Source of the DNA: an uncultured Chloroflexia bacterium
GTDB lineage: Bacteria > Chloroflexota > Chloroflexia > Chloroflexales > Herpetosiphonaceae
Reading direction: 5' to 3'
Assembly: GCA_963767035.1 (NCBI GenBank)
Contig: CAVYBW010000001.1
Span: forward strand, 2,502,547-2,566,546
DNA length: 64,000 nucleotides
Under the pieces are notes generated by a model. It was not told where the DNA came from. It did not search any database and saw only the letters and a list, made by a program, of their open reading frames with translations. A program made the position numbers and the translations under genes. Positions within the stretch are counted from its first letter, which is position 1; each line of letters begins with the position of its first letter. Below, one piece after another: positions 2,842 to 62,974 of this stretch.

Positions 2842-4602
2842 TTAGCGCCGTTTCAAACGCCCAAGAATCCGTTGTTGCCAAACTGCGGCTTCGGGCGCAC
2901 CCAAGGCACTAGAACAGGCAAAATAGCTGCCGATTGCCAGCAGGCCTTGAAAAATCAACGAACCAAGCAAATTCCAGAGGCTTTGGGTTTGCGGCGCAAT
3001 CTGCATCCATGCCGCTCGATTAAATAATTGCAGCTGCCACGCCAAGCCCAAACCGCCAATTAAGCCGATTGCCAGCCCTAGCCAGCGTGGAAATGGCTCG
3101 GCACGCAAACGCCGCCACCCATAGTTCAAGCCGAGCAAGCCAACAATCAGGAGCGCAAATACTGGCGCTTGCAACACCAAAACCATCGCCAACGAGCTAA
3201 CCAGGGTTATCAGCAACGAGCGCCGCAGTTGGCCAGCCCGATCAAGATTGCCATTGCGTCGCCGCCACATGAACAGGAGCAGCAGTAATTCAAGGTTGTT
3301 GGTAACGCTAAATGCTCCCGCCAGCACAATATGGCTGGTGCTATAACGTGTTAGTATCCAACACAGACCAATATTCAGCACCACAGTCACTACCCCAATC
3401 ACCACTGGAATTGTCGTTTCTTGACGGGCATAAAAGCCGCGAATCAGAATTTCGGCGGCACCGAAGGCTGGGAGCGCTGTGGCATACATCATCAATGCCT
3501 GCACCACCCACAAGGTCGATTGGCTATCGAAGTTGCCACGTTGAAACAACACTTGAACAATCGGCGTGGCGAGGAGTATCAAGCCAGCAGCGGCAGGAAT
3601 AATCGCCCATAACACGGTGCCCAAAGTGCTGCGGGTGGTTTGATTAAAGCCCGCGTGATCGCCCGCCGCATCCAAGCGGCTCAGTTGGGGAAACATCACG
3701 GTAGCTAGGCTTAGGGCAAAAATGCCATGCGGTAGTAGCATCAAGGTCAGAGCATTGCTCAAGGCCGTGGCGCGGCCATCGCCAAGCAATTTGGCAAAGC
3801 TAAAAATCGCAATCGTGTTGATTTGCATCGCTGCTTGGCCAAACACCCTTGGCCCCATCAATAGGCCAATTCGACGCAGTGCCGCATCGCGCCAATTGAA
3901 GAGCACTTGATAACGAAAGCCAGATCGATAGAGCACTGGCAATTGACACAGCAAATACAGCAAGGCTCCCAAGACCACGCCCCAAGCAGCACCCTCGATC
4001 GAAACCAATTGGCCATTATGCTCAACCACGCTAATCGGGTGCTGCACCCAACCAAAACGCACCAACAACGGCCCGATCAGTACAATCCCAGCAATAATCG
4101 CCACGTTATAAATCACGGGAACCAAGGCTGGCAGCGTAAAATGATCAAGCGCATTCAGCGTTGCCATCGCCAAGCCACCCAAACCCAGCAGCAACGGCGA
4201 GAGCATAAACAACCGCACCAAATAAATTGCCAAGCCTAGTTGTTCGGGCGTATAGGTGGGGTTGAGCCAACGCAACAGCGGGTCGGCCAGCAGCAAAATT
4301 GCCAGCGACACCACGCTCAATACCGCCAATGCCGCGTTGATTACCAAATTAGCGACTTGCCAAGCCCGTTCATGGGTTTCTTTGGTATAGGCTTCGATAA
4401 AAATTGGAATAAAGGCTGTACCCAAGGCTCCGCCAATAATCACCAAATACAATAAATCGGGAATTTGAAAGGCTGTGGTATAGATATCGCTAATACTATT
4501 TGTGCCAAAATAGCTTGATAAGACCGTTTGGCGCACAATTCCAATCACCCGGCTTAATAAATAGCCCAACATCACAATTGCGCTATTCAGAACAGCACTC
4601 AT
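2842..4602 (-). CDS. murJ: lipid II flippase MurJ (MviN family)
   Basis: The N-terminus 'MSAVLNSAIVMLGYLLSRVIGIVRQTVLSSYFG' is the canonical MurJ start. There are about 14 TM helices and a long C-terminal extension. The ORF runs on to 4704, but the internal ATG at 4602 matches the family N-terminus. Confidence 0.75.
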   Translation of the reverse strand: MSAVLNSAIVMLGYLLSRVIGIVRQTVLSSYFGTNSISDIYTTAFQIPDLLYLVIIGGALGTAFIPIFIEAYTKETHERAWQVANLVINAALAVLSVVSLAILLLADPLLRWLNPTYTPEQLGLAIYLVRLFMLSPLLLGLGGLAMATLNALDHFTLPALVPVIYNVAIIAGIVLIGPLLVRFGWVQHPISVVEHNGQLVSIEGAAWGVVLGALLYLLCQLPVLYRSGFRYQVLFNWRDAALRRIGLLMGPRVFGQAAMQINTIAIFSFAKLLGDGRATALSNALTLMLLPHGIFALSLATVMFPQLSRLDAAGDHAGFNQTTRSTLGTVLWAIIPAAAGLILLATPIVQVLFQRGNFDSQSTLWVVQALMMYATALPAFGAAEILIRGFYARQETTIPVVIGVVTVVLNIGLCWILTRYSTSHIVLAGAFSVTNNLELLLLLFMWRRRNGNLDRAGQLRRSLLITLVSSLAMVLVLQAPVFALLIVGLLGLNYGWRRLRAEPFPRWLGLAIGLIGGLGLAWQLQLFNRAAWMQIAPQTQSLWNLLGSLIFQGLLAIGSYFACSSALGAPEAAVWQQRILGRLKRR

Positions 4603-5111: not shown

Positions 5112-5252
5112 CGTTAATGCAGGCAAGAAGAACAAAGAGCATAGAACAAAGAGCATAGAAATTGAGGATCAGGGGGCTAGGATTTTTAACGCAGAGGATA
5201 CGAGGCTAATAGCTATTTGTAACGGTTCATTGGCTTGGCAAAGATAGGCATT

Positions 5253-5395
5253 CCCTCACCTCCCAACCCCCTCTCCCACTGAACGCAGGCGAGGGGGAGC
5301 CATCGTGGATTGACCGATTGACCATGCATCATGCGAAAACCACGAGGTTAAAGCCCCTCTCCCGCGCCATGGGAGAGGGGTTGGGGTGATGGGAC
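5253..5395. repeat. composite palindromic REP/MITE-like element: unit 1 'CCCTCACC..CCCCTCTCCCACTGAACGCAGGCGAGGGGGAGCC', spacer, unit 2 'CCCTCTCCCGCGCCATGGGAGAGGGGTTGGGGTGATGGGA'
   Basis: Outer arms 'tccctcacctcccaacccc' and 'ggggttggggtgatggga' are reverse complements. Inner hairpins are 'cctctccc gcgccatg ggagagg'. The family recurs at 15443, 27490, 31078, 31245 and 36895. Confidence 0.7.
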
Positions 5396-8006: not shown

Positions 8007-10289
8007 CTAGTTGCTTTGGGTTTCCATACCAGCCCAAAAGGCTTGGAGTTTTTCACGCACCTTGGCATGTTCAGGCAATTCCAATTCAGGATCGATCTTC
8101 AAAATCCGTTCGGATTCAATCCGTGCCGCATGCAGCAAGCGCGTATCAGTCAATTGAGCCACCTTGAGATCGGGCGTACCGCTCTGGCGAATGCCAAAAA
8201 ATTCGCCCGGCCCGCGCAGTTCAAGATCAACTTCGGCTAAGCGAAAGCCATCTTCGCTCTCTTCCATCGACGAAAGCCGCGCGACTGTCACGTCATTATC
8301 TTCTTTGTCGCTGACCAAAATACAGAATGATTGATGGCTGCCACGGCCAACCCGCCCACGGAATTGATGCAACTGCGCCAAACCAAAGCGCTCAGCACCT
8401 TCGATCATAATTGTGGTCGCGTTGGGAATATCAATCCCGACTTCAACCACCGCTGTCGCGACCAAAATATCAAATTCACGGTCGCGAAACTGGGCCATAA
8501 TCGTGTCTTTTTCGCTCGAAGTCATACGGCCATGAATCAAGCCCACTTTCAAATCAGGGAAAATCTCGTGCTGCAAATGCTCTTGCTCAACAATCGCCGA
8601 TTTTACATCTTCGAGTTTTTCGCTTTCCTCGACTAGTGGGCAAATTACAAAGGCTTGGCGGCCAGCCGCAATCTCCTTGCGCATATGTTTGTAGGCCTTG
8701 CTGCGCTCGCCTGAGCTGATCCATTTGGTGCGAATCGGCATACGGCCTGGTGGGCGTTCATCGATCACCGAGACATCGAGATCACCATAAATCGTCAAGG
8801 CCAGCGAGCGGGGAATTGGCGTGGCAGTCATCACCAACAGATGCGGATTGAAGCCCTTGCGTTTGAGCGCCTCACGTTGTTCAACTCCAAAACGATGCTG
8901 CTCATCGACCACCGCCAAACCAAGCGCCTGATAATCGACATTGGCTTGAATCAGCGAATGGGTGCCAATGATGATGTCAACTTCGCCATCGGCGATTAAT
9001 TTCAGGGCTTCACGCCGTTGACGGGCTTTGAGGCTACCAGTCAAAAGTGCTACTCGAATGCCACCTGGCTCTGGCTCTGGCTCATCGGCAAGCATCAGCA
9101 ATTGCTTAATTTGGGCGAGCCGATTGCGTTTTTCTTGATCAAGCTCGCTGCGCCAATCGCCATTCGTAGGAATCTCGCGGCCAGGAATTTTGACATTCGC
9201 CAGCAATTTTTTCAACCCACGATAATGTTGTTCAGCCAGAATTTCGGTTGGAGCCATCATCGCACCTTGGAAGCCAGCCGCAACTGCTTGCACCAAGGCT
9301 GCCGCTGCAACTGCCGTCTTGCCCGAACCAACATCGCCCTGGACAAGACGGGTCATTGGTACAGGCCGCTCCAGATCGCGGCAAATTTCGGTAAAAGTGC
9401 GGGCTTGGGCATTGGTCAAGGCAAAGGGCAGCGAAGCCAAATAGGCATCATGAATTGCTTGATTAAAGGCAATTGGCTGGCCTTGGACTCCTTGATAGAG
9501 CCGTTTACGCTGCAATACGCCCAACTGAATATACAGAAATTCATCAAAACCCAAGCGTTGGCGCGCTCGTTGCACCATCGCCCAGCTATCGGGGAAATGA
9601 ATTTGGCTGATTGCAACGCCCAAAGGTAATAATCCAGCCCGTTCACGCAGCTCAATTGGCAATGGATCAGGCATTGTTGGGGTTAGCACATCAACGACCC
9701 GTTTAATTACTTGGCGAGCGTTGCGATCTTGCAGGCCTTTGGTCAGCGGGTGGACTGGCACAAGGCGGCCAGTATGCACCAAATCATCTTCGACAAATGG
9801 CTCCCATTGCGGGTTGCTCATCGATTTCATTTCGCGAAACATACTAACTTTGCCACTGAGCACAATCCGCATGCCTTCGCGAAATTGCTTGGCCATCCAA
9901 GTGCCGCGAAACCACGAAGCTTTGAGCACGCCTGTATCATCGCCAACCGTAATTTCAACCCCTTGACGACCTTTGGCATTAAAGCTTTTAATCGTATCGA
10001 CGGTCACAATCACGGTGTCGGTTTCACCCACCACCAAATCGCAAATTTGCTTGCGTTTACTAAAATCGTCGTAGCGATGAGGAACGTGATAGAGCAAATC
10101 TTCGAGCATATGCACGCCCAAGCGGGCGAACGAACGCGCGGTGCTTGGCCCAATGCCCTGCAAATTTTTCAGCAAGGTATCGAGTGGCGGCACTGCGCCC
10201 ACCGGTTCAGCAGTAGCCTTGGGCTGTTTACGAAACAAATTGCGCAGCCGATCAAGCGCGACGCTCAAGCGAGCTTCACGTTCGGGCAT
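8007..10289 (-). CDS. recG: ATP-dependent DNA helicase RecG
   Basis: N-terminal wedge/OB region. Helicase motifs 'GDVGSGKT', 'VVDEQHRFG', 'LVMTATPIPRSL', 'IIVGTH', 'QFRGRVGRG'. About 760 aa, which is RecG-sized rather than Mfd-sized. Confidence 0.85.
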   Translation of the reverse strand: MPEREARLSVALDRLRNLFRKQPKATAEPVGAVPPLDTLLKNLQGIGPSTARSFARLGVHMLEDLLYHVPHRYDDFSKRKQICDLVVGETDTVIVTVDTIKSFNAKGRQGVEITVGDDTGVLKASWFRGTWMAKQFREGMRIVLSGKVSMFREMKSMSNPQWEPFVEDDLVHTGRLVPVHPLTKGLQDRNARQVIKRVVDVLTPTMPDPLPIELRERAGLLPLGVAISQIHFPDSWAMVQRARQRLGFDEFLYIQLGVLQRKRLYQGVQGQPIAFNQAIHDAYLASLPFALTNAQARTFTEICRDLERPVPMTRLVQGDVGSGKTAVAAAALVQAVAAGFQGAMMAPTEILAEQHYRGLKKLLANVKIPGREIPTNGDWRSELDQEKRNRLAQIKQLLMLADEPEPEPGGIRVALLTGSLKARQRREALKLIADGEVDIIIGTHSLIQANVDYQALGLAVVDEQHRFGVEQREALKRKGFNPHLLVMTATPIPRSLALTIYGDLDVSVIDERPPGRMPIRTKWISSGERSKAYKHMRKEIAAGRQAFVICPLVEESEKLEDVKSAIVEQEHLQHEIFPDLKVGLIHGRMTSSEKDTIMAQFRDREFDILVATAVVEVGIDIPNATTIMIEGAERFGLAQLHQFRGRVGRGSHQSFCILVSDKEDNDVTVARLSSMEESEDGFRLAEVDLELRGPGEFFGIRQSGTPDLKVAQLTDTRLLHAARIESERILKIDPELELPEHAKVREKLQAFWAGMETQSN

Positions 10290-10494
10290 GGCTTAAATCG
10301 GAGTAGCCATCGAGCGCATCAAGCACGCCCTGCACAACAGGTTCGTGCAACGCTTGCGGATTCTGGGATTGCCATTCGCGCAAAAACGCACTGATACCTT
10401 GGGCACTCGCGGTATCGTCACAACCGGCCTTTTCCTCGGCGGCCAAGGTTTTGCCAAGTTCAATGATGTGGTGATTTGCTTGCATAGCCATCAA
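10276..10494 (-). CDS. small hypothetical protein (about 72 aa) immediately upstream of and overlapping the recG start
   Basis: ORF 'MAMQANHHIIELGKTLAAEEKAGCDD...'. The longer ORF-track version extends into the heptamer-repeat DNA and is unlikely to be real. Confidence 0.25.
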   Translation of the reverse strand: MMAMQANHHIIELGKTLAAEEKAGCDDTASAQGISAFLREWQSQNPQALHEPVVQGVLDALDGYSDLSHART

Positions 10495-10559
10495 AACAAA
10501 GAACATAGAAACTGGCTCTATGTTCAAATCGAGTCGCTCAACTGTGCGTATATTGTACC

Positions 10560-10599
10560 AGAACATAGAACATAGAACATAGAACATAGAACATAGAGC
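10560..10599. repeat. tandem heptamer repeat (gaacata) x5
   Basis: 'cagaacatagaacatagaacatagaacatagaacatagagc'. Related 'catagaac/agagcat' motifs occur at 5140-5160, 35060-35095, 59779-59805 and 59904-59933. Confidence 0.8.
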
Positions 10600-10611
10600 A
10601 AAGGATGAACG

Positions 10612-10903
10612 CAAAAGGCAGAAGGCAAAAATCCTTCTTGGCGAGACTAAATTCAACATGGCTCTAGGCTATGGGCTTTTGGCTAGTGGAACTCGCTTCG
10701 GGCAATTCGTGGAATTCGTGGCAAAAAACCCTCGCATCTGCGGAATCTGTGGCCAAAAACAAAACTTCGTAGTTGGACAACAGTTTCTATTAACGCAGCG
10801 GCGCAGAGCACCAAAGGCACTCGACTGATGGATAGCGGCTATCAACGATTGGTTGGAGATTTCAACATCCCATAGACTAGAGCCTCATCACTTCGTGGAG
10901 CAA
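10612..10903 (+). repeat. copy A of a ~300-bp direct repeat flanking the low-GC cassette
   Basis: Aligns with 11323-11636 with a few indels; begins 'caaaaggcag..aaaaatccttcttg.cgagactaaattcaa' and ends 'agagcctcatcacttcgtggagcaa'. Confidence 0.85.
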
Positions 10904-10906
10904 CTA

Positions 10907-11269
10907 TTAAATCTTTTTCAATTGTAAATACCACAGTGCCCGATCCCAAGTCAATAGATGTACATTTTCAACAATTTTGAGTGCCTCAGCCAGAATATAG
11001 AAATTTTGCGAAAAAACTTGCTCGCCAGTATGAATATGCTGAATCATCACCCAAAAATTTTTGCCCTCGCTGGTCTGCTTTTTTGCTTGATCATAGGTAT
11101 TGGTTGGATACAAACAGATAATTGGTTTGTCGGATAACAATTGCTTAGTAGCAGTTACTAGCTCATGACCTTTGGGGCAATAATAATCGTCCGGCAATTC
11201 CCAATCATCATCGTGAAATTCTTGCCATGGCAAACAATAATCACAATGAAAACTCCAGATTACTTTCAT
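10907..11269 (-). CDS. hypothetical 120-aa Cys-rich protein encoded by a low-GC (~37%) gene
   Basis: Strong RBS 'aaggag' 5 nt before the ATG. Motifs 'HCDYC...CPKGHE'. The gene is markedly AT-rich compared with its surroundings and sits exactly between two direct repeats. Confidence 0.6.
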   Translation of the reverse strand: MKVIWSFHCDYCLPWQEFHDDDWELPDDYYCPKGHELVTATKQLLSDKPIICLYPTNTYDQAKKQTSEGKNFWVMIQHIHTGEQVFSQNFYILAEALKIVENVHLLTWDRALWYLQLKKI

Positions 11270-11322
11270 TTTTACTCCTTAGCATTCATCAGCATACACA
11301 CCAAACCATTATAAGAAAATTT

Positions 11323-11636
11323 CAAAAGGCAGCAGCAAAAATCCTTCTTGTCGAGACTAAATTCAATTGCGCAGAGCAATAATTGCTCTAGGCTATGGGC
11401 TTTTGGCTAGCGGAACTCGCTTCGGGCAATTCGTGGAATTCGTGGCAAAAACCCTCGCATCTGCGGAATCTGTGTCAATCTGTGGTCAAAAACAAATTTT
11501 CGTGGTTGGACAACAGTTTCTATTAACGCAGAGGGTCAGAGGAACCATGGATAGCGGCTATCAACGATTGGTTGGAAATTTCAACATCCCTAGCCAAAAG
11601 CCCATACCCTAGAGCCTCATCACTTCGTGGAGCAAA
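11323..11636 (+). repeat. copy B of the ~300-bp direct repeat
   Basis: See copy A. Insertions relative to A: 'ttgcgcagagcaataattg', 'tgtcaatctg', 'tagccaaaagcccataccc'. Confidence 0.85.
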
Positions 11637-11710: not shown

Positions 11711-12484
11711 ATGCCGAGCCTTGTAGTTGAACCACCAGCAGTGCTCAAATTGCTGGCTCACGAGTTACGCTGGCGCTTGCTGCAACTTTTAGTTCATAGC
11801 GATTATCGGGTGCATGAATGTGTTGCGGCGCTGCAAGCCCCGATGAACGTGGTTTCCTATCATTTGCGATTATTGCGTGAGGCTGCTTTGGTGAGCGAAC
11901 GACGGAGCGAAGCCGATGGCCGCGATGTCTATTACCACCTCGATTTGCCAGCCTTGCAAACTGCCTACCAAGCTAGTGCCCAAGCACTGCACCCCGATCT
12001 CGATCCGTTTGCCAGCAAACCAACCAATCAAACCTATCAAATCAGCAAACCTGTGCGCATTTTATATTTGTGTACCCATAACAGCGCCCGTTCGCAATTG
12101 GCCGAGGCAATTACCCGCCATATTGGCGGCCCAATGCTCGATGTGGTCAGCGCCGGAACTCAGCCTAGCGAGGTGCATCGACTTGTGCTCGCTACCTTAG
12201 ATGAAAAAAAGATTTCCAGCGTTGGCCTGTATTCCAAAGCGCTCCAGCCCTACCTTGAGCAGCATTTTGATTATGTGATTACGGTCTGTGATCGGGCACG
12301 TGAGCAATGCCCGACGCTTGCTGGTCATCCTACGGGTCTGCATTGGAGCTTTGCCGATCCGTTGCTCGAAACCAGTGAGCTAGCCCAAGCTGCCGCGATC
12401 GATGCGACCGCCCGCCAATTGATGACGCGGATTCGCTTTTTGCTGACCACGATTGAGCGCCAACAGCATGTAGGCCACAAATAA
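11711..12484 (+). CDS. ArsR-family HTH regulator fused to an LMW-PTP/ArsC-type (thioredoxin-coupled) arsenate reductase domain
   Basis: N-terminal 'LAHELRWRLLQLL...ECVAALQAPMNVVSYHLRLLREAALV' is an ArsR wHTH. The C-terminal 'ILYLCTHNSARSQLAEA' is the CX5R P-loop of LMW-PTP/ArsC. Confidence 0.75.
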   Translation: MPSLVVEPPAVLKLLAHELRWRLLQLLVHSDYRVHECVAALQAPMNVVSYHLRLLREAALVSERRSEADGRDVYYHLDLPALQTAYQASAQALHPDLDPFASKPTNQTYQISKPVRILYLCTHNSARSQLAEAITRHIGGPMLDVVSAGTQPSEVHRLVLATLDEKKISSVGLYSKALQPYLEQHFDYVITVCDRAREQCPTLAGHPTGLHWSFADPLLETSELAQAAAIDATARQLMTRIRFLLTTIERQQHVGHK

Positions 12485-12513
12485 TGGCAATTCAGGGGTT
12501 ATAGGAGCCAGCG

Positions 12514-13731
12514 ATGCAGCAACAACACAAAGAGTATGCAATTGTCACGGCGGCATATTGGGCTTTTACCTTGACTGATGGCGCATTACGCATGCTGGTG
12601 CTGTTTCATTTTCATGAACTTGGCTATAGCGCATTGGCTGTGGCAACGCTCTTTATTTTCTATGAATTTTTTGGGGTGATTACCAATTTGGTTGGTGGCT
12701 GGTTTGGTGCACGCTTTGGGCTAAACCGCACCTTGCAGGCTGGGCTAGTCTTGCAGGTGTTCGCCTTGGCGATGATGATTGTGCCCAGTGGCTGGCTAAG
12801 CGTGCCATATGTGATGCTTGCCCAAGCTGGCTCAGGCATCGCCAAAGATTTGACCAAAATGAGCGCCAAAAGCAGCATCAAAATGCTTGTCGCCCAAGAT
12901 GCCCAATCGACGTTATTTAAATGGGTAGCACTATTGACTGGCTCGAAAAATGCACTCAAAGGCGTGGGCTTTTTCCTTGGCAGCCTATTATTAAGCACAA
13001 TTGGCTTTCGGAGTGCCTTCGCAGCGCTGGCGAGCCTCATCGCCCTAGCGGCACTTGGCACTTGGCGCTTTTTACACCACGATTTGGGGCGCAGCAAAGC
13101 AAAGCTCAAATGGCAACAGCTATTTGCCAAAAGCCGCGCAATCAATCTGCTTTCGGCAGCACGCTGTTTTCTTTTTGCGGCGCGGGATGTTTGGTTTGTG
13201 GTCGGATTGCCAGTGTTTCTCAGCGAGGTGTTGGGCTGGTCGTTTTGGCAGGCTGGAGGCTATTTGGCCTTGTGGGTGATTGGCTATGGCCTGATTCAAG
13301 CGCTTGCGCCCCAAATTACCCGTCGCTGGCAAGCAACACCCAATGGCTTGGCGGCAACGATTTTGGCTGGTGTGCTGACCCTGATTATGGCAAGCCTAGC
13401 CAGCGTTGTGCAAATCAATCAACAAGCAGCAGGCGTAGTGGTGTTGGGATTAATTGGCTTTGGGATTATTTTTGCGCTCAATTCTGCCGTGCATTCCTAC
13501 TTAATTCTGGCCTATACCGATCAGGCTGAGGTGGCGTTGAATGTGGGCTTTTACTATATGGCCAATGCATTGGGCCGTTTGCTTGGCACGATTTTATCGG
13601 GGCTGCTCTACCAAAGTTTTGGCTTAGCTGGTTGTTTATGGGCGGCGGCAAGTTTAAGCGCAATTACGGCGATTATCTCGTTGAGCTTACCCCGCTTGCC
13701 AAGCACGCAAAGCGTAGGAATTGGCCTATAA
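12514..13731 (+). CDS. MFS-type permease (about 12 TM); possibly arsenic-related given its neighbour
   Basis: 12 hydrophobic helices; the loop 'GGWFGARFGLNRT' between TM2 and TM3 is MFS motif-A-like. The functional link to arsenic is inferred from context only. Confidence 0.55.
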   Translation: MQQQHKEYAIVTAAYWAFTLTDGALRMLVLFHFHELGYSALAVATLFIFYEFFGVITNLVGGWFGARFGLNRTLQAGLVLQVFALAMMIVPSGWLSVPYVMLAQAGSGIAKDLTKMSAKSSIKMLVAQDAQSTLFKWVALLTGSKNALKGVGFFLGSLLLSTIGFRSAFAALASLIALAALGTWRFLHHDLGRSKAKLKWQQLFAKSRAINLLSAARCFLFAARDVWFVVGLPVFLSEVLGWSFWQAGGYLALWVIGYGLIQALAPQITRRWQATPNGLAATILAGVLTLIMASLASVVQINQQAAGVVVLGLIGFGIIFALNSAVHSYLILAYTDQAEVALNVGFYYMANALGRLLGTILSGLLYQSFGLAGCLWAAASLSAITAIISLSLPRLPSTQSVGIGL

Positions 13732-15442: not shown

Positions 15443-15578
15443 CCCTCACCCCCTAGCCCCCTCTCCCACTGCACGCGGGCGAGGGGGAGCCGATTGCACC
15501 CTACCACGAATTATGCCAAAACCACTACATGAATCCCTTCGTTCGCGCCGTGGGAGAGAGGTTGGGATGAGGGAACCA
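15443..15578. repeat. composite palindromic REP/MITE-like element (same family as 5253-5395)
   Basis: 'ccctcaccccctagccccctctcccactgcacgcgggcgagggggagcc ... cgcgccgtgggagagaggttgggatgagggaacc'. Confidence 0.7.
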
Positions 15579-27489: not shown

Positions 27490-27545
27490 CCCCAACCCCC
27501 CAACCCCCCAACCCCCTCTCCCACTGAGCGCGGGCGAGGGGGAGC
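27490..27545. repeat. partial REP/MITE-like element (unit 1 only), followed at 27601-27690 by 'gggatgagggatgaag...cacgaag'-type repeats
   Basis: 'ccccaaccccccaaccccctctcccactgagcgcgggcgagggggagc'. Confidence 0.6.
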
Positions 27546-27876
27546 TGCCTGATCTCTTCCAACGCCCACAACTCAAACCCCGAATAGCCGTAATTGGGTA
27601 AAGAATGAGGGATGAGGGATGAAGTTTATAATTCGTGGCTAAAAGCTTAATCTTTGTGATCTTCGTAGTTAAAGCGTCATTTTTTAGCCCCAGATTTTAC
27701 AGATTTGTTTGCTTATCTGCGATGCTCAAAGCCCAACTTCGTGTCTTTCGTGGTTCCGATCCCCGACCGCTAACAACCGATCCCCAATTAGATTAAGCCC
27801 TTTGGCGCATGGCGCTGCATTGCCAAGCCTGCTATGCTAAAATCAGCGTATTGGTTTAGCTAGATTGAGAACTGCC

Positions 27877-31059: not shown

Positions 31060-31077
31060 ACAGAATATAGTATTTGT

Positions 31078-31408
31078 TCCCTCACCCCCTCGCCCACTGA
31101 ACGCGGGCGAGGGGGAGTCGAACCAGCCAAAACGCTGGTTGATCCGTCTAATGTCGCTGAAACCACCGCGTGAAGCCTCAACCTCGCGCCACGGGAGAGG
31201 GATTGGGGTGAGGGGATCTTCATTACCTACCCTTGTAAGCTAGCCCCCGCTCCCACTGAACGCGGGCGAGGGGGAATCGATCCTTTATTCCAAATGTATC
31301 ACGTAAAAACCACGGGTTTAAACTTGCTCCCGCCGGCGATGGGCAACCACGAGGCCAGCGCTCTCCTTGCCCGCATGCAGTGGGAGCGGGGTTGGGGGTG
31401 AGGGAACA
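31078..31408. repeat. two adjacent composite REP/MITE-like elements (31078-31220 and 31245-31408)
   Basis: 'ccctcaccccctcgcccactgaacgcgggcgagggggagtcg...cgcgccacgggagagggattggggtgaggggatc' and 'cccccgctcccactgaacgcgggcgagggggaatcg...gcagtgggagcggggttgggggtgagggaac'. Confidence 0.7.
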
Positions 31409-35006: not shown

Positions 35007-35329
35007 GCAATGCCTCCTTGCACTCCAAAACGGGTCTGGCTCTCAGCTATAAATTTGCGCCATGATACCATATTGATAGAACATAGAACATAGCAGTAAG
35101 GGATGAGAGCTTGGAGAAAAGATGAGGGATGAAATTATGAATATAGGGCTAAAGATTTAACGCAGAGGCGCAGAGAATGGGAGGCTATTGGCTGAGGGTG
35201 ATAGGCTATGGGTTTTGATTCCCCATGTATCGCCGCTAGCCAACAGCCTCAACTTTGTATCATTCGTGCCCTTTGATCCACGAAGGGCACGTCCAACCAT
35301 TGTTCCGCTAGCCAAGAGCCTAGAGCCAT

Positions 35330-36655
35330 TCAATTTCTTTGTTCTATGCTCTTCGTGCGTGGCTCAGGCAGGCGGCGCGAGAGCAACAAGCCAACAAAAG
35401 CACTGGCGGCGCTGATCCAAAACAATGGCAAATAGCCGAATTGGGCCAACAATAAGCCACCCAAAACTGGAAAGAAGGTTGCAATACCCATCAAGGTGTT
35501 ACAAACGCCTACATATACAGGCCGCTGCTCGGCTGGAGCAAGCTCCATCACATAGGTTAAACTGGCGGTGTTTGAGCCATCAACGCTCAAGCCAATCAAC
35601 AAAAAGATTACCCCAAACAGCCAACCCAAGGCTTCCGTGCCCAAAACGCTGGCAAATGGCATAATCAGCAAGGCCCAGGTTGGCACGGTAATAATCAACG
35701 CTCCAGTCAGCACAACCAACAAGCGATTGCCGCGTTGATCGCCGATGCGCGACCAAAACAGGTTCGATAGCGCTGCTGCCAAAACTCGCACCGCCAAATA
35801 AACCCCAATCATGCGTGGCGAAACATGCAGCACTTCCCGGGCATACAAAATATAAAATGGATCGGCCAAGCCACCCAAGCGCGTGACCATGCGCGAAAGC
35901 ACATATTGACGAAAGTTGCGATCATGCTTGAGCAACAGCGGAATCTTGGCAAACATCTGTTTGGCCGAAATTGCCGCAGGTGGGTTGGTCGTCGGTGGCT
36001 CGGCAAACAGGCTAAACGAAATAATGCCAAAGCCAATCAGCACAAACGAAATACACAGCAAGATGCCATAGTTATACGGAAAGACCAAGGGACTGCCGCG
36101 GCTGAGCAGCCAGCCAACCAATGGGCTAACCAAGACAAACGAAAGCAAACCGCCGATTAAATTGCGCGAGCCAAAAAACTTGCCACGCTGGCGAGCAGGA
36201 ATCGTCTTGGCCACAACCTCTTGAAAGGCGACCGAACCAGAGCCGCCAGTGAAGTTGTACATGGCGTAGCCGAGCAAAAACAAGGGCAATAGCACCAAAA
36301 CCGGCAAACTGGTCGCATTCCAAACCACCAAAATCATTGCCAGCCAAATGAAAAAGCGTACAATCCCCACTTGGCGATAGACTGGTAATTTGTAGGTCAT
36401 GCCTTGCAAACGCCCAGCGCTTAATAATTGCGGTAACAGCCACCCCCCCGATTTGAGCGATGGCAACAAGCCCACCACCCATGGCGCAGCACCCAACTCG
36501 CGCACAAACACGGTCAAAACCAAATTCGCATCGCTAAATGCGTCGGCTAAAATAAATAAAACTCCATTGGCCACTCCTAAGCGCATGTTGCGGCGCAAAG
36601 TTTCTTCATTGCTCGCTCGGGGAGCAATTGGCCGATGAAGTGCTAATTTCCATTG
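35330..36655 (-). CDS. MFS transporter (12-14 TM)
   Basis: Regular hydrophobic helices throughout. The probable start is 'MQWKLALHRP'; the upstream extension of the ORF runs into repeat DNA. Confidence 0.65.
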   Translation of the reverse strand, partial: QWKLALHRPIAPRASNEETLRRNMRLGVANGVLFILADAFSDANLVLTVFVRELGAAPWVVGLLPSLKSGGWLLPQLLSAGRLQGMTYKLPVYRQVGIVRFFIWLAMILVVWNATSLPVLVLLPLFLLGYAMYNFTGGSGSVAFQEVVAKTIPARQRGKFFGSRNLIGGLLSFVLVSPLVGWLLSRGSPLVFPYNYGILLCISFVLIGFGIISFSLFAEPPTTNPPAAISAKQMFAKIPLLLKHDRNFRQYVLSRMVTRLGGLADPFYILYAREVLHVSPRMIGVYLAVRVLAAALSNLFWSRIGDQRGNRLLVVLTGALIITVPTWALLIMPFASVLGTEALGWLFGVIFLLIGLSVDGSNTASLTYVMELAPAEQRPVYVGVCNTLMGIATFFPVLGGLLLAQFGYLPLFWISAASAFVGLLLSRRLPEPRTKSIEQRN

Positions 36656-36960: not shown

Positions 36961-37074
36961 AAATACACGTGGTGGATGGCAAGCATCTTCTAATGAACCA
37001 CTCATGCCTCGGTTCGCATCAGAACGTAGTATTACGCGACAATTGGGCTATTTGGTACTAGGCTATGGGCTAGC

Positions 37075-37200
37075 GGAACATGCCTTCAACCTTCAACCTT
37101 CAACCTTCAATCTTCATCCTTCATCCTTCAACCTTCATCCTTCAACCTTCATCCTTCAACCTTCAACCTTCATCCTTCAACCTTCATCCTTCTCTGCGTT
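37075..37200. repeat. 7-bp tandem repeat array (ccttcaa/ccttcat, about 17 units)
   Basis: 'ttcaaccttcaaccttcaaccttcaatcttcatccttcatccttcaaccttcatcc...'. A partial copy of the 10612-type repeat ('ctaggctatgggctagcggaac') is immediately upstream at 37040-37072. Confidence 0.85.
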
Positions 37201-59778: not shown

Positions 59779-59933
59779 GAGAACAGAGAGCATAGAGCAT
59801 AGAACAAATTGAGAGTGCAGGGGTCAGGGGCTAGCTATCAGTACGGAGGGTTTGGCCTATTAAACTTCGCTACTGCGAAAGCTGGCTTCCTAGCTCCTAA
59901 TCCCTCTGTTCTATGCTCTCTGTTCTATGCTCT
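59779..59933. repeat. MITE-like element: inverted terminal blocks built from 'catagaac/agagag' units flanking a ~98-bp core
   Basis: Left 'gagaacagagagcatagagcatagaac'; right 'ctctgttctatgctctctgttctatgctct', a reverse-complement composition. It occupies the ino1/acyltransferase intergenic region. Confidence 0.5.
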
Positions 59934-61936: not shown

Positions 61937-62150
61937 GGGTCAGGGATCAGGTGCTAGGGTTCAGTTTTTGATTCACGAAGGACACGAAGGCCGAAACCGC
62001 GAAGATCACGAAGATCGCGAAGGTTAAGTTTTTAGCCACAGATTCCACAGATTTCTGGATTAGCTACGAGCGATGTCCAACGTGTTGGCTGATCCCTGAC
62101 TGCTGACCTCTTTTCCTCCTTCATCCCTCATCCCTCATCCTTTATCCCTT
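61937..62150. repeat. intergenic short-repeat cluster ('gggatcagg', 'cacgaag' x4, 'catccctcatccctcatcc')
   Basis: Same motif family as 14160-14200, 27601-27690, 35100-35300 and 63940-64000. Confidence 0.6.
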
Positions 62151-62200: not shown

Positions 62201-62974
62201 ATGAATCAGTTTGATGATGTACGTGCCGTGTTATGCGATATGGATGGCGTATTGGTCCACGGCGCGCAAATTATTCCTGGCGCGCCAGAGTTTTTGGGTC
62301 GGCTCCGCGCTTCAGGCCGCAAATTTTTAGTCCTGACCAACAATTCAATTTATACTCCGCGCGATTTGCAGGCCCGTTTGGCGCGAATCGGCTTGCCCCT
62401 AGAAATTGAAGATATTTATACTTCGGCCTTGGCCACCGCCAAATTCCTCGATTCGCAACGGCCCAATGGCACAGCCTTTGTGATTGGTGAAGCCGGCCTG
62501 ACTAATGCGCTCTACGATGTTGGCTACACCATGACCGAGCATGATCCTGATTATGTGGTAATTGGCGAAACCACATCCTACAGCTTTGAACGCATCACCC
62601 AAGCTGTGCGCTTAGTGGCAGCTGGCTCACGCTTGATCGGCACCAATCCTGATGTTTCGGGGCCATCAGAGCGCGGCATTTTGCCAGCCTGTGGCGCAGT
62701 TGTGGCCTTAATTCAGGCTGCCACCAACGCCGAAGCTTATTTTGTGGGCAAGCCCAACCCCGTGATGATGCGAACTGCGCTGCGAACGATCGACTCGCAT
62801 GCCGCCGAAGCGATGATGATTGGCGACCGCATGGATACCGATATCATTGGCGGCACGGAGTCTGGGATGCGCACAGCGCTGGTGCTTTCGGGCATGATGA
62901 CCCGCTTGGATGCCGAACGCTATCCTTACCGTCCAACCGCAATTATTGAATCAGTCGCTGAATTGTTCAATTAA
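62201..62974 (+). CDS. HAD-superfamily subfamily IIA phosphatase (NagD-like sugar-phosphate phosphatase)
   Basis: 'VLCDMDGVLVHG' motif I; 'LVLTNNS' motif II; 'GKP...GDRMDTDI' motifs III/IV. Confidence 0.8.
   Translation: MNQFDDVRAVLCDMDGVLVHGAQIIPGAPEFLGRLRASGRKFLVLTNNSIYTPRDLQARLARIGLPLEIEDIYTSALATAKFLDSQRPNGTAFVIGEAGLTNALYDVGYTMTEHDPDYVVIGETTSYSFERITQAVRLVAAGSRLIGTNPDVSGPSERGILPACGAVVALIQAATNAEAYFVGKPNPVMMRTALRTIDSHAAEAMMIGDRMDTDIIGGTESGMRTALVLSGMMTRLDAERYPYRPTAIIESVAELFN

Follow-up and report, generated by a model that had tools for sequence, protein, structure and literature searches.

A low-GC gene between duplicated intergenic repeats upstream of recG in Herpetosiphon, and its candidate role as an orphan immunity gene

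gene120, the name used here for a 120-aa open reading frame (ORF), is a low-GC gene on the minus strand of a 64-kb stretch of DNA, referred to as the window, which is the whole of the sequence analysed. It lies directly upstream of recG and between two direct repeats of about 300 nt, termed U (the upstream copy) and D (the downstream copy). The host genus is Herpetosiphon, and five Herpetosiphon species have RecG proteins 97-98% identical to that of the window. An exact 26-mer from the repeat gave 0 matches among the contigs of the genome collection, and the window's own genome is therefore absent from that collection. The locus was compared among the window, H. llansteffanensis (L006), H. geysericola, H. 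sp. NSE202, H. giganteus, and H. aurantiacus DSM 785, and a metagenome contig with a gene120 relative (L002) was used beside these six genomes. Coordinates of the features are given in Table 1.

The gene and its bracketing repeats had been picked out by an earlier sequence-only reading of this DNA, and both descriptions are borne out. The two repeat copies align end to end in BLASTN, with 78.4% identity over 329 gapped columns (E=2e-82), and their ungapped blocks of 28-74 nt are 85-100% identical. D starts 3 nt past the gene120 stop codon, while U stops 53 nt short of the start codon. The GC content of gene120 is 0.37 versus 0.504 for the window, the second-lowest among 50 likely window genes, and its GC content at third codon positions (GC3) is 0.38 versus a mean of 0.52 (standard deviation 0.054) for the same 50 genes. 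The ribosome-binding site, called textbook in the earlier description, is an AAGGAG Shine-Dalgarno sequence 7 nt 5' of the ATG, and a TATAAT box is found ~30 nt 5' of the ATG. Both signals recur at orthologous loci, with AAGGAG kept in five of six and TATAAT placed ~25-45 nt 5' of the ATG in five of six.

Table 1. Features of the gene120 locus, and positions of the uncharacterised toxin C-terminal domain on other contigs (strand given for the window)
Feature	Position	Strand	Description
U repeat	11323..11636	minus	~300-nt modular intergenic element, upstream copy; 26-bp terminal inverted heptamer-array stem 11385-11410 / 11590-11615
gene120 leader/promoter	11270..11322	minus	unique 53 nt; holds TATAAT box and AAGGAG ribosome-binding site; read from sequence
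gene120	10907..11269	minus	120-aa cytoplasmic protein; predicted orphan immunity protein against an uncharacterised C-terminal domain of Rhs/polymorphic toxins
D repeat	10612..10903	minus	downstream copy; orthologous to the downstream flank in all five genomes with gene120 beside recG
(AGAACAT)x5.4 heptamer array	10560..10597	minus	outer boundary of the unit and the point from which H. aurantiacus is homologous
recG promoter/leader	10489..10559	minus	TGGTACAAT extended -10 box; outside the repeat unit; conserved in all six genomes
C-terminal (CT) domain, ~110 aa	L056 5613-5954; L058 5634-5975; L059 82-423; L063 ~553-873; L062 3214-3546		

gene120 is a real, old, and syntenic gene. It is found directly upstream of recG in five of the six genomes (the window, H. 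geysericola, H. llansteffanensis, H. sp. NSE202, and H. giganteus), always as one copy per genome, and is missing from H. aurantiacus DSM 785, in which recG is present. Close homologues are confined to Herpetosiphon and include a copy identical to the window's in one further genome, and relatives at 83% identity lie on two metagenome contigs. Pairwise ratios of nonsynonymous to synonymous divergence (dN/dS) are 0.04-0.15 for gene120 across 6 orthologues and 0.00-0.03 for recG. Between the window and four species, dS is 0.60-0.76 for gene120 and 0.59-0.62 for recG, and this agreement indicates that the two genes have diverged together since before the species split; a metagenomic gene120 copy is more distant (dS >1).

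Across all six lineages, gene120 has a GC3 of 0.32-0.38, whereas that of recG is 0.52-0.56. Its place beside recG in five of six genomes, together with low GC3 throughout, shows that gene120 is not a recent insertion. The earlier description had set conservation in synteny with normal GC3 in relatives against its proposal of a cassette; gene120 is conserved in synteny, yet its GC3 stays abnormally low. In every lineage GC3 has failed to move toward the host value, a pattern that hints at selection or at a local preference for AT-rich codons.

gene120 is a member of a wider protein family. Neither the protein nor the family matches a model in Pfam, NCBIfam, PADLOC, or PHROGs, so the earlier statement that it has no recognisable family holds for these libraries. 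It does not hold for an exhaustive HMMER search with the Herpetosiphon alignment against 1.84 billion representatives, which yields 44 matches at E<=1e-3. About 40 of these are full-length (120-135 aa, 25-30% identity); the long matches P0035, P0036, P0042, and P0045 were rejected as repeat-protein artefacts. When the Herpetosiphon-only profile is compared by hhalign with the three toxin-linked members tested, the match probability is 96-97% (E 2e-10 to 5e-9). Named members are 'hypothetical' proteins of Polystyrenella longa (Planctomycetota) and of an Acidobacteria metagenome-assembled genome, and the rest are metagenomic.

The conserved residues of the family are W5, C9, D10, W15, C31, G34, H35, E36, and P55, and most members contain the pattern C-D-x-G-H ... 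C-P-x-G-H-E. To judge from these motifs, the family may have a Cys/His metal site, and gene120 probably binds zinc. The AlphaFold2 (AF2) model of gene120 has a predicted local distance difference test score (pLDDT) of 93 and finds no fold match among PDB and viral folds. Family members are 3-11 GC points lower than their own loci, and low GC is thus a trait of the family. gene120 has a foreign look, being low in GC and part of a family that is patchily distributed and linked to polymorphic-toxin cassettes. No gene120 relatives turned up in metagenome and viral scans, and plasmid searches with the gene120 protein and with the repeat were likewise negative.

Seven genomic contexts outside Herpetosiphon were examined (L055, L056, L057, L058, L059/L060, L061, and L063/L064). 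In four independent contexts the gene120 homologue lies immediately 3' of a polymorphic-toxin gene and in the same orientation, with gaps of 3-44 nt. On L058 the homologue follows a 1880-aa Rhs protein after 23 nt, and a second Rhs fragment is also present. On the Acidobacteria contig L056 it follows a 621-aa YD-shell protein after 44 nt, in the company of PT-HINT, HNH_5, and DUF4265. The remaining two homologues follow a truncated ORF after 11 nt, with Imm42 two genes downstream (L059/L060), and a 291-aa ORF cut by the contig end after 3 nt, with no other neighbours noted (L063/L064). Imm-NTF2 is also among the neighbouring genes.

The four upstream proteins are all homologous to one another over their last ~110 aa (37-48% identity, E 1e-13 to 1e-27), which constitute the C-terminal (CT) domain of Table 1. 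This domain carries the motifs KYGG, EGGW.F.N, R.A.KAA.EIAG, FRGG, GH, PH[IV]NV, and HL[FW]Y, after which the stop codon follows at once. In the Rhs proteins it lies past the canonical DPxGL core end, which is at residue 1599 of 1880 and residue 348 of 621, and on L063 it is preceded by a Hint-like ...LVHNSC sequence. An Acinetobacter gerneri Rhs fragment contains DPIGL and then the same CT domain. The carriers of the domain are thus Rhs proteins from Acidobacteria, Acinetobacter, and metagenomes, together with one Hint-preceded protein. The domain has no meaningful match among Pfam and PDB sequences; by eye, its motif spacing is HNH-like.

In Rhs and contact-dependent growth inhibition (CDI) systems, a small gene directly after a variable C-terminal toxin domain is the cognate immunity gene (PMC3150448), and the concept of an orphan immunity gene has been described (PMC10539506, PMC12247911). 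By the gene neighbourhood of its remote homologues, gene120 would encode such an immunity protein. The CT domain was not found in the window or at the orthologous Herpetosiphon loci, and a limited word-indexed search found none elsewhere in Herpetosiphon. With no toxin near the Herpetosiphon gene, gene120 would be an orphan. Toxin immunity, its likely function, was not among the candidates of the sequence-only reading.

The U/D element is built from genus-wide intergenic modules and heptamer arrays. Its apparent terminal inverted repeat (GGCTCTAGGCTATGGGCTTTTGGCTAG and the complement) consists of two oppositely oriented degenerate heptamer arrays, (GGCTnnn)n. In copy 2 the 26-nt arms are 96% complementary and the RNA fold has z=-7.5, whereas in copy 1 the arms are eroded and z=-2.9. 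Herpetosiphon intergenic DNA is a mosaic of heptamer arrays (AGAACAT, CCTTCAA, TCCCTCA, AGCCCAT, CTTTTGC), short modules, and hairpins that resemble repetitive extragenic palindromic (REP) sequences. The short modules include CACGAAG repeats, GGTTAAGTTTTT.GCCACAGATT, GCCACGAATT.CACGAATT, and TAACGCAGAGGCGCAGAG.

The sequence-only reading saw submotifs of a short-repeat family in the repeat: U/D modules of 25-70 nt recur across the intergenic DNA of the genus (in the window at 61988-62056, 35157-35330, 27630-27644, and 37058-37079, plus other loci) and are not tied to gene boundaries. Its third partial copy at 37040-37072, in turn, shrinks to a module of just ~22-29 nt, CTAGGCTATGGGCT..GCTAGCGGAAC, with matches of 14 and 19 nt. 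The census of repeats covered the 64-kb window and about 90 kb from relatives, ~150 kb of Herpetosiphon DNA rather than a whole genome. A third long copy was not found in the window. The duplication at its long size (~300 nt) is found solely on either side of gene120, in the window genome and H. llansteffanensis, and no other long copy exists in the window or the examined relatives, so the bracketing repeat is specific to this locus.

Only the window and H. llansteffanensis have a full-length U, and there it accompanies an arsR-MFS gene pair. In the three species without this pair, U is down to 68-91 nt of similarity to D and gene120 is still in place. Within-genome similarity between U and D is 92% over 320 nt in H. 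llansteffanensis, 78% over 329 nt in the window, 93% over 76 nt in H. sp. NSE202, 96% over 68 nt in H. geysericola, 79% over 91 nt in H. giganteus, and 94% over 81 nt on L002. Orthologous repeats of the window and H. llansteffanensis are about 71% identical over their shared part. The two copies within a genome are thus more alike than orthologous copies in different genomes, as would be expected from gene conversion or re-duplication after speciation. The arsR-MFS pair, at 11711-13731 of the window, comprises a fusion of ArsR with a low-molecular-weight phosphatase and a gene for a transporter of the major facilitator superfamily (MFS). It forms a 2.2-kb indel that is present in the window and H. 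llansteffanensis and absent from H. geysericola, H. sp. NSE202, and H. giganteus, and its junction falls exactly at the start of the U repeat.

Several other intergenic repeats are visible in the window. Tandem heptamer and 14-mer arrays (AGAACAT, CCTTCAA, TCCCTCA, AGAACAAAGAGCAT) are found at 10560-10597, 37083-37192, 62117-62149, 5129-5160, and 59904-59933; such intergenic arrays are abundant and resemble cyanobacterial short tandemly repeated repetitive (STRR) sequences. A full-text literature search found no paper tying Herpetosiphon to heptanucleotide repeats. The idea that the AGAACAT arrays are LexA/SOS boxes was dropped, as the arrays are not palindromic at Cheo-box spacing. A family of G/C-rich, REP-like intergenic hairpins (CCCTCACCCC..CCCCTCTCCCACTG.ACGCGGGCGAGGGGGAG) occurs at 5253-5316, 15443-15506, 27498-27561, 31071-31134, and 31230-31293 of the window, at 551-590 and 1256-1298 of L002, and at 4230-4272 and 5590-5632 of L005. 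On L002, inverted copies of this hairpin bracket the repeat-gene120-repeat unit. Two further readings of the U/D repeat were rejected. Beyond the heptamer-array stem nothing supports a structured RNA, and Rfam covariance models at the gathering score have no match anywhere in the window; a miniature inverted-repeat transposable element (MITE) is disfavoured by the lack of a target-site duplication and of any other full-length copy.

The explanation favoured here, and regarded as probable, is that gene120 is an orphan immunity gene, ancient and passed on vertically, against an undescribed CT domain of Rhs/polymorphic toxins, and that it is set within locally duplicated and concertedly evolving modular intergenic repeats. 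The gene120 protein would bind and neutralise a CT toxin domain delivered into the cell by a competitor. A Herpetosiphon ancestor would have acquired the gene, probably within a low-GC toxin-immunity cassette; the toxin would then have disappeared while gene120 was retained, and the gene would since have been inherited vertically in its place directly upstream of recG, with strong purifying selection acting on it. The ~300-bp direct repeats would be a local duplication of the heptamer-rich modular intergenic DNA of the genus and not the ends of an active mobile element, and gene conversion or re-duplication may keep U and D alike within one genome.

A broader proposal is put forward more tentatively, at slightly less than an even chance. 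It describes an undescribed toxin-immunity pair, formed by a ~110-aa CT toxin on Rhs and Hint-preceded proteins in several phyla and a ~120-aa Cys/His immunity protein without a detectable fold neighbour. One orphan immunity copy would be fixed genus-wide in a repeat-gene-repeat unit with concerted flanks, which perhaps occasionally relocates as a block, as on L002.

Several observations weigh against an orphan immunity gene amid passively duplicated repeats. Three of the seven contexts outside Herpetosiphon have no adjoining toxin: L055 has a sigma-54 response regulator upstream and an acetyltransferase downstream, L057 has a pyruvate phosphate dikinase-type gene (PPDK_N) upstream, and L061 has short unannotated ORFs. 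The toxin-linked member P0031 lacks the Cys/His residues, and metal binding therefore does not extend to the whole family. The protein encoded after the A. gerneri toxin fragment is only a weak match to the family (hhalign 34%). gene120 is not a member of the described immunity families (Pfam Imm*, SUKH, CdiI, and so on), and no match to known immunity families was found by sequence or structure. For an orphan immunity gene, such strict conservation beside recG and such strong purifying selection are out of the ordinary, and gene120 could have a housekeeping role instead. As for the repeats, D starts 3-5 nt past the stop codon in the window and on L002, where the gene context differs; this tight spacing and the other context of L002 suit a discrete unit that can move more than they suit a duplication that is purely passive.

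Mobility is the alternative that the sequence-only reading had raised, in the form of an acquired cassette or a mobilised element. As an active or recently active mini-cassette, the repeat together with gene120 would move by repeat recombination, Campbell-type circle integration, or repeat-mediated excision. The low GC of gene120 and the close fit of D to the stop codon (3 nt in the window, 5 nt on L002) speak for such a unit. On L002 the repeat-gene-repeat unit is not upstream of recG but between an ATPase-like gene and a MscS gene. H. aurantiacus lacks gene120, and its homology with the window starts at ~10563 with the AGAACAT array and recG promoter, just outside D. Everything upstream of this point differs, which marks a rearrangement breakpoint, and H. 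aurantiacus accordingly fails as a clean empty site. Rearrangement at repeat-rich spacers explains the L002 context and the H. aurantiacus breakpoint equally well. Three species have lost most of the U repeat with gene120 unmoved, and the ~150 kb surveyed contain no further full-length repeat to serve as a target. No integrase or recombinase was found within +/-10 kb in the window and L001, and no target-site duplication is visible next to the repeat arms. The equal dS of gene120 and recG at the same position in five of six genomes is that of vertical descent, and with the single copy per genome and the lack of plasmid, viral, or metagenome matches, it argues against current mobility. The mini-cassette is therefore considered unlikely. 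What survives of the acquired-cassette proposal is the foreign look of the gene, the displaced unit on L002, and the absence of the unit from H. aurantiacus; recent or active mobility does not survive, and a mobilised element finds no recombinase, target-site duplication, clean empty site, or plasmid or viral copy to stand on.

Two other explanations assign a role to the repeats or to the recG linkage. By regulatory duplication, or 'promoter propagation', a ~300-bp element with operator or UP-type elements would have been copied so that gene120 and the recG operon share control, and duplicated mobile promoter regions are a described phenomenon (PMC3488235). Each copy is indeed upstream of a co-oriented gene (U before gene120, D before recG), related modules lie upstream of other genes, such as window 61974-62055 before the gene at 62201, and one of three module copies on L002 precedes the MscS gene. 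However, the -10 boxes of gene120 and recG are both outside the repeated segment, the promoter scan shows no enrichment relative to shuffles, no transcription-factor motif emerged, and gene120 is kept in the three species in which U is shortened; this explanation is rated quite improbable. Alternatively, gene120 could be a Zn-ribbon-like housekeeping or DNA-repair accessory factor that works with RecG and is no immunity protein. The tight linkage to recG in 5 genomes, the strong purifying selection, and the conserved Cys/His motif would suit this role, but the remote homologues in other phyla are never beside recG and four of them follow toxin genes. The L002 copy is likewise away from recG, H. 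aurantiacus has recG without gene120, and the gene bears a foreign compositional signature, all of which leaves a RecG partner very unlikely.

Other features were noted on the recG side of the unit and elsewhere in the window. The recG leader contains a hairpin of 9-10 bp at 10525-10501 (minus strand), GAACATAGAG-CCAGT-TTCTATGTTC, followed by TTTGTTTTGA and a T-tract to about 10491. The hairpin lies between the TGGTACAAT -10 box and the recG ORF start, is conserved (also in H. llansteffanensis and H. aurantiacus), and may be an attenuator or operator. Within the recG coding region at ~10276-10290 (minus strand), the window has a 1-nt insertion, CATGCCCGAA versus CATG-CCGAA in five other Herpetosiphon genomes (L004-L008, about 6000). 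Where the relatives have one recG ORF of 832-854 aa, the insertion leaves a 70-aa ORF (10488-10276) and a 760-aa RecG that begins at an ATG at the junction; it is a genuine frameshift allele or else an error of sequencing.

A second low-GC gene (GC 0.37, GC3 0.31) is found at 2300-2791 on the minus strand, with a probable start ATG at 2729. Its product is a small multi-pass membrane protein with no Pfam match. The gene is absent from H. llansteffanensis and fills the MurJ-GH8 gap, which is 118 nt in that species, and a perfect 13-bp hairpin lies at 2256-2287. It has no flanking direct repeats, and low-GC accessory genes here are thus not generally repeat-bracketed. At 71-327 the window contains a 33/84-nt tandem coding repeat rich in CCAACCAA, a low-complexity region of Pro/Thr/Asn type.

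The Chloroflexota host is a filamentous predator, and polymorphic-toxin systems are little studied in this phylum. An orphan immunity role provides a testable function for a genus-restricted 'hypothetical protein'. Curated libraries contain neither the toxin domain nor the immunity family, and both would be useful for annotating polymorphic-toxin loci. If the favoured explanation is true, an orphan immunity gene held under genus-wide purifying selection, in lineages separated by a dS of 0.6 to >1, would represent acquired interbacterial defence of unusual stability in a predatory and little-studied phylum. Its persistently low GC3 and concerted flanks are small, clean examples for the study of amelioration and of gene conversion in repeat-rich intergenic DNA.

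The locus shares traits with several known systems. As in MITEs, REP-derived bacterial interspersed mosaic elements (REP-BIME), and cyanobacterial STRR sequences, the U/D repeat has 26-nt terminal inverted arms that form a long hairpin, and it is built of tandem heptamers and scattered intergenic modules. Unlike them, it has no target-site duplication and no further full-length copy in about 150 kb of Herpetosiphon DNA, and its duplicated segment extends past the inverted arms on both sides. Integron gene cassettes are similar in that a promoter-proximal small gene is bounded by repeated sequences resembling recombination sites. In contrast to such cassettes, gene120 has no integrase nearby, its flanks are 300-nt direct copies and not an attC-type imperfect palindrome of conserved architecture, and its position is stable across species.

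The rAID system (acquired interbacterial defence associated with a recombinase) also comprises low-GC orphan immunity genes with conserved intergenic motifs and a cassette-like look. It differs from the gene120 locus, which is a single low-GC gene with two repeat copies and no array of two or more, has no tyrosine recombinase within +/-10 kb in the window and L001, belongs to another phylum, and has flanking repeats made of genus-wide intergenic modules. Compared with the orphan immunity genes of Rhs, CDI, and type VI secretion systems (T6SS; PMC3150448, PMC10539506, PMC12247911), the gene120 family fits no Pfam or NCBIfam immunity model and its cognate toxin domain is also unclassified, and gene120 itself is fixed, syntenic, and strongly conserved genus-wide where those genes are variable and fast-evolving. 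Like them, gene120 is small, has a lower GC content than its host, and is without an adjacent toxin, while its homologues come directly after the C-terminal toxin domains of Rhs proteins, with toxin and immunity sequences that vary in step.

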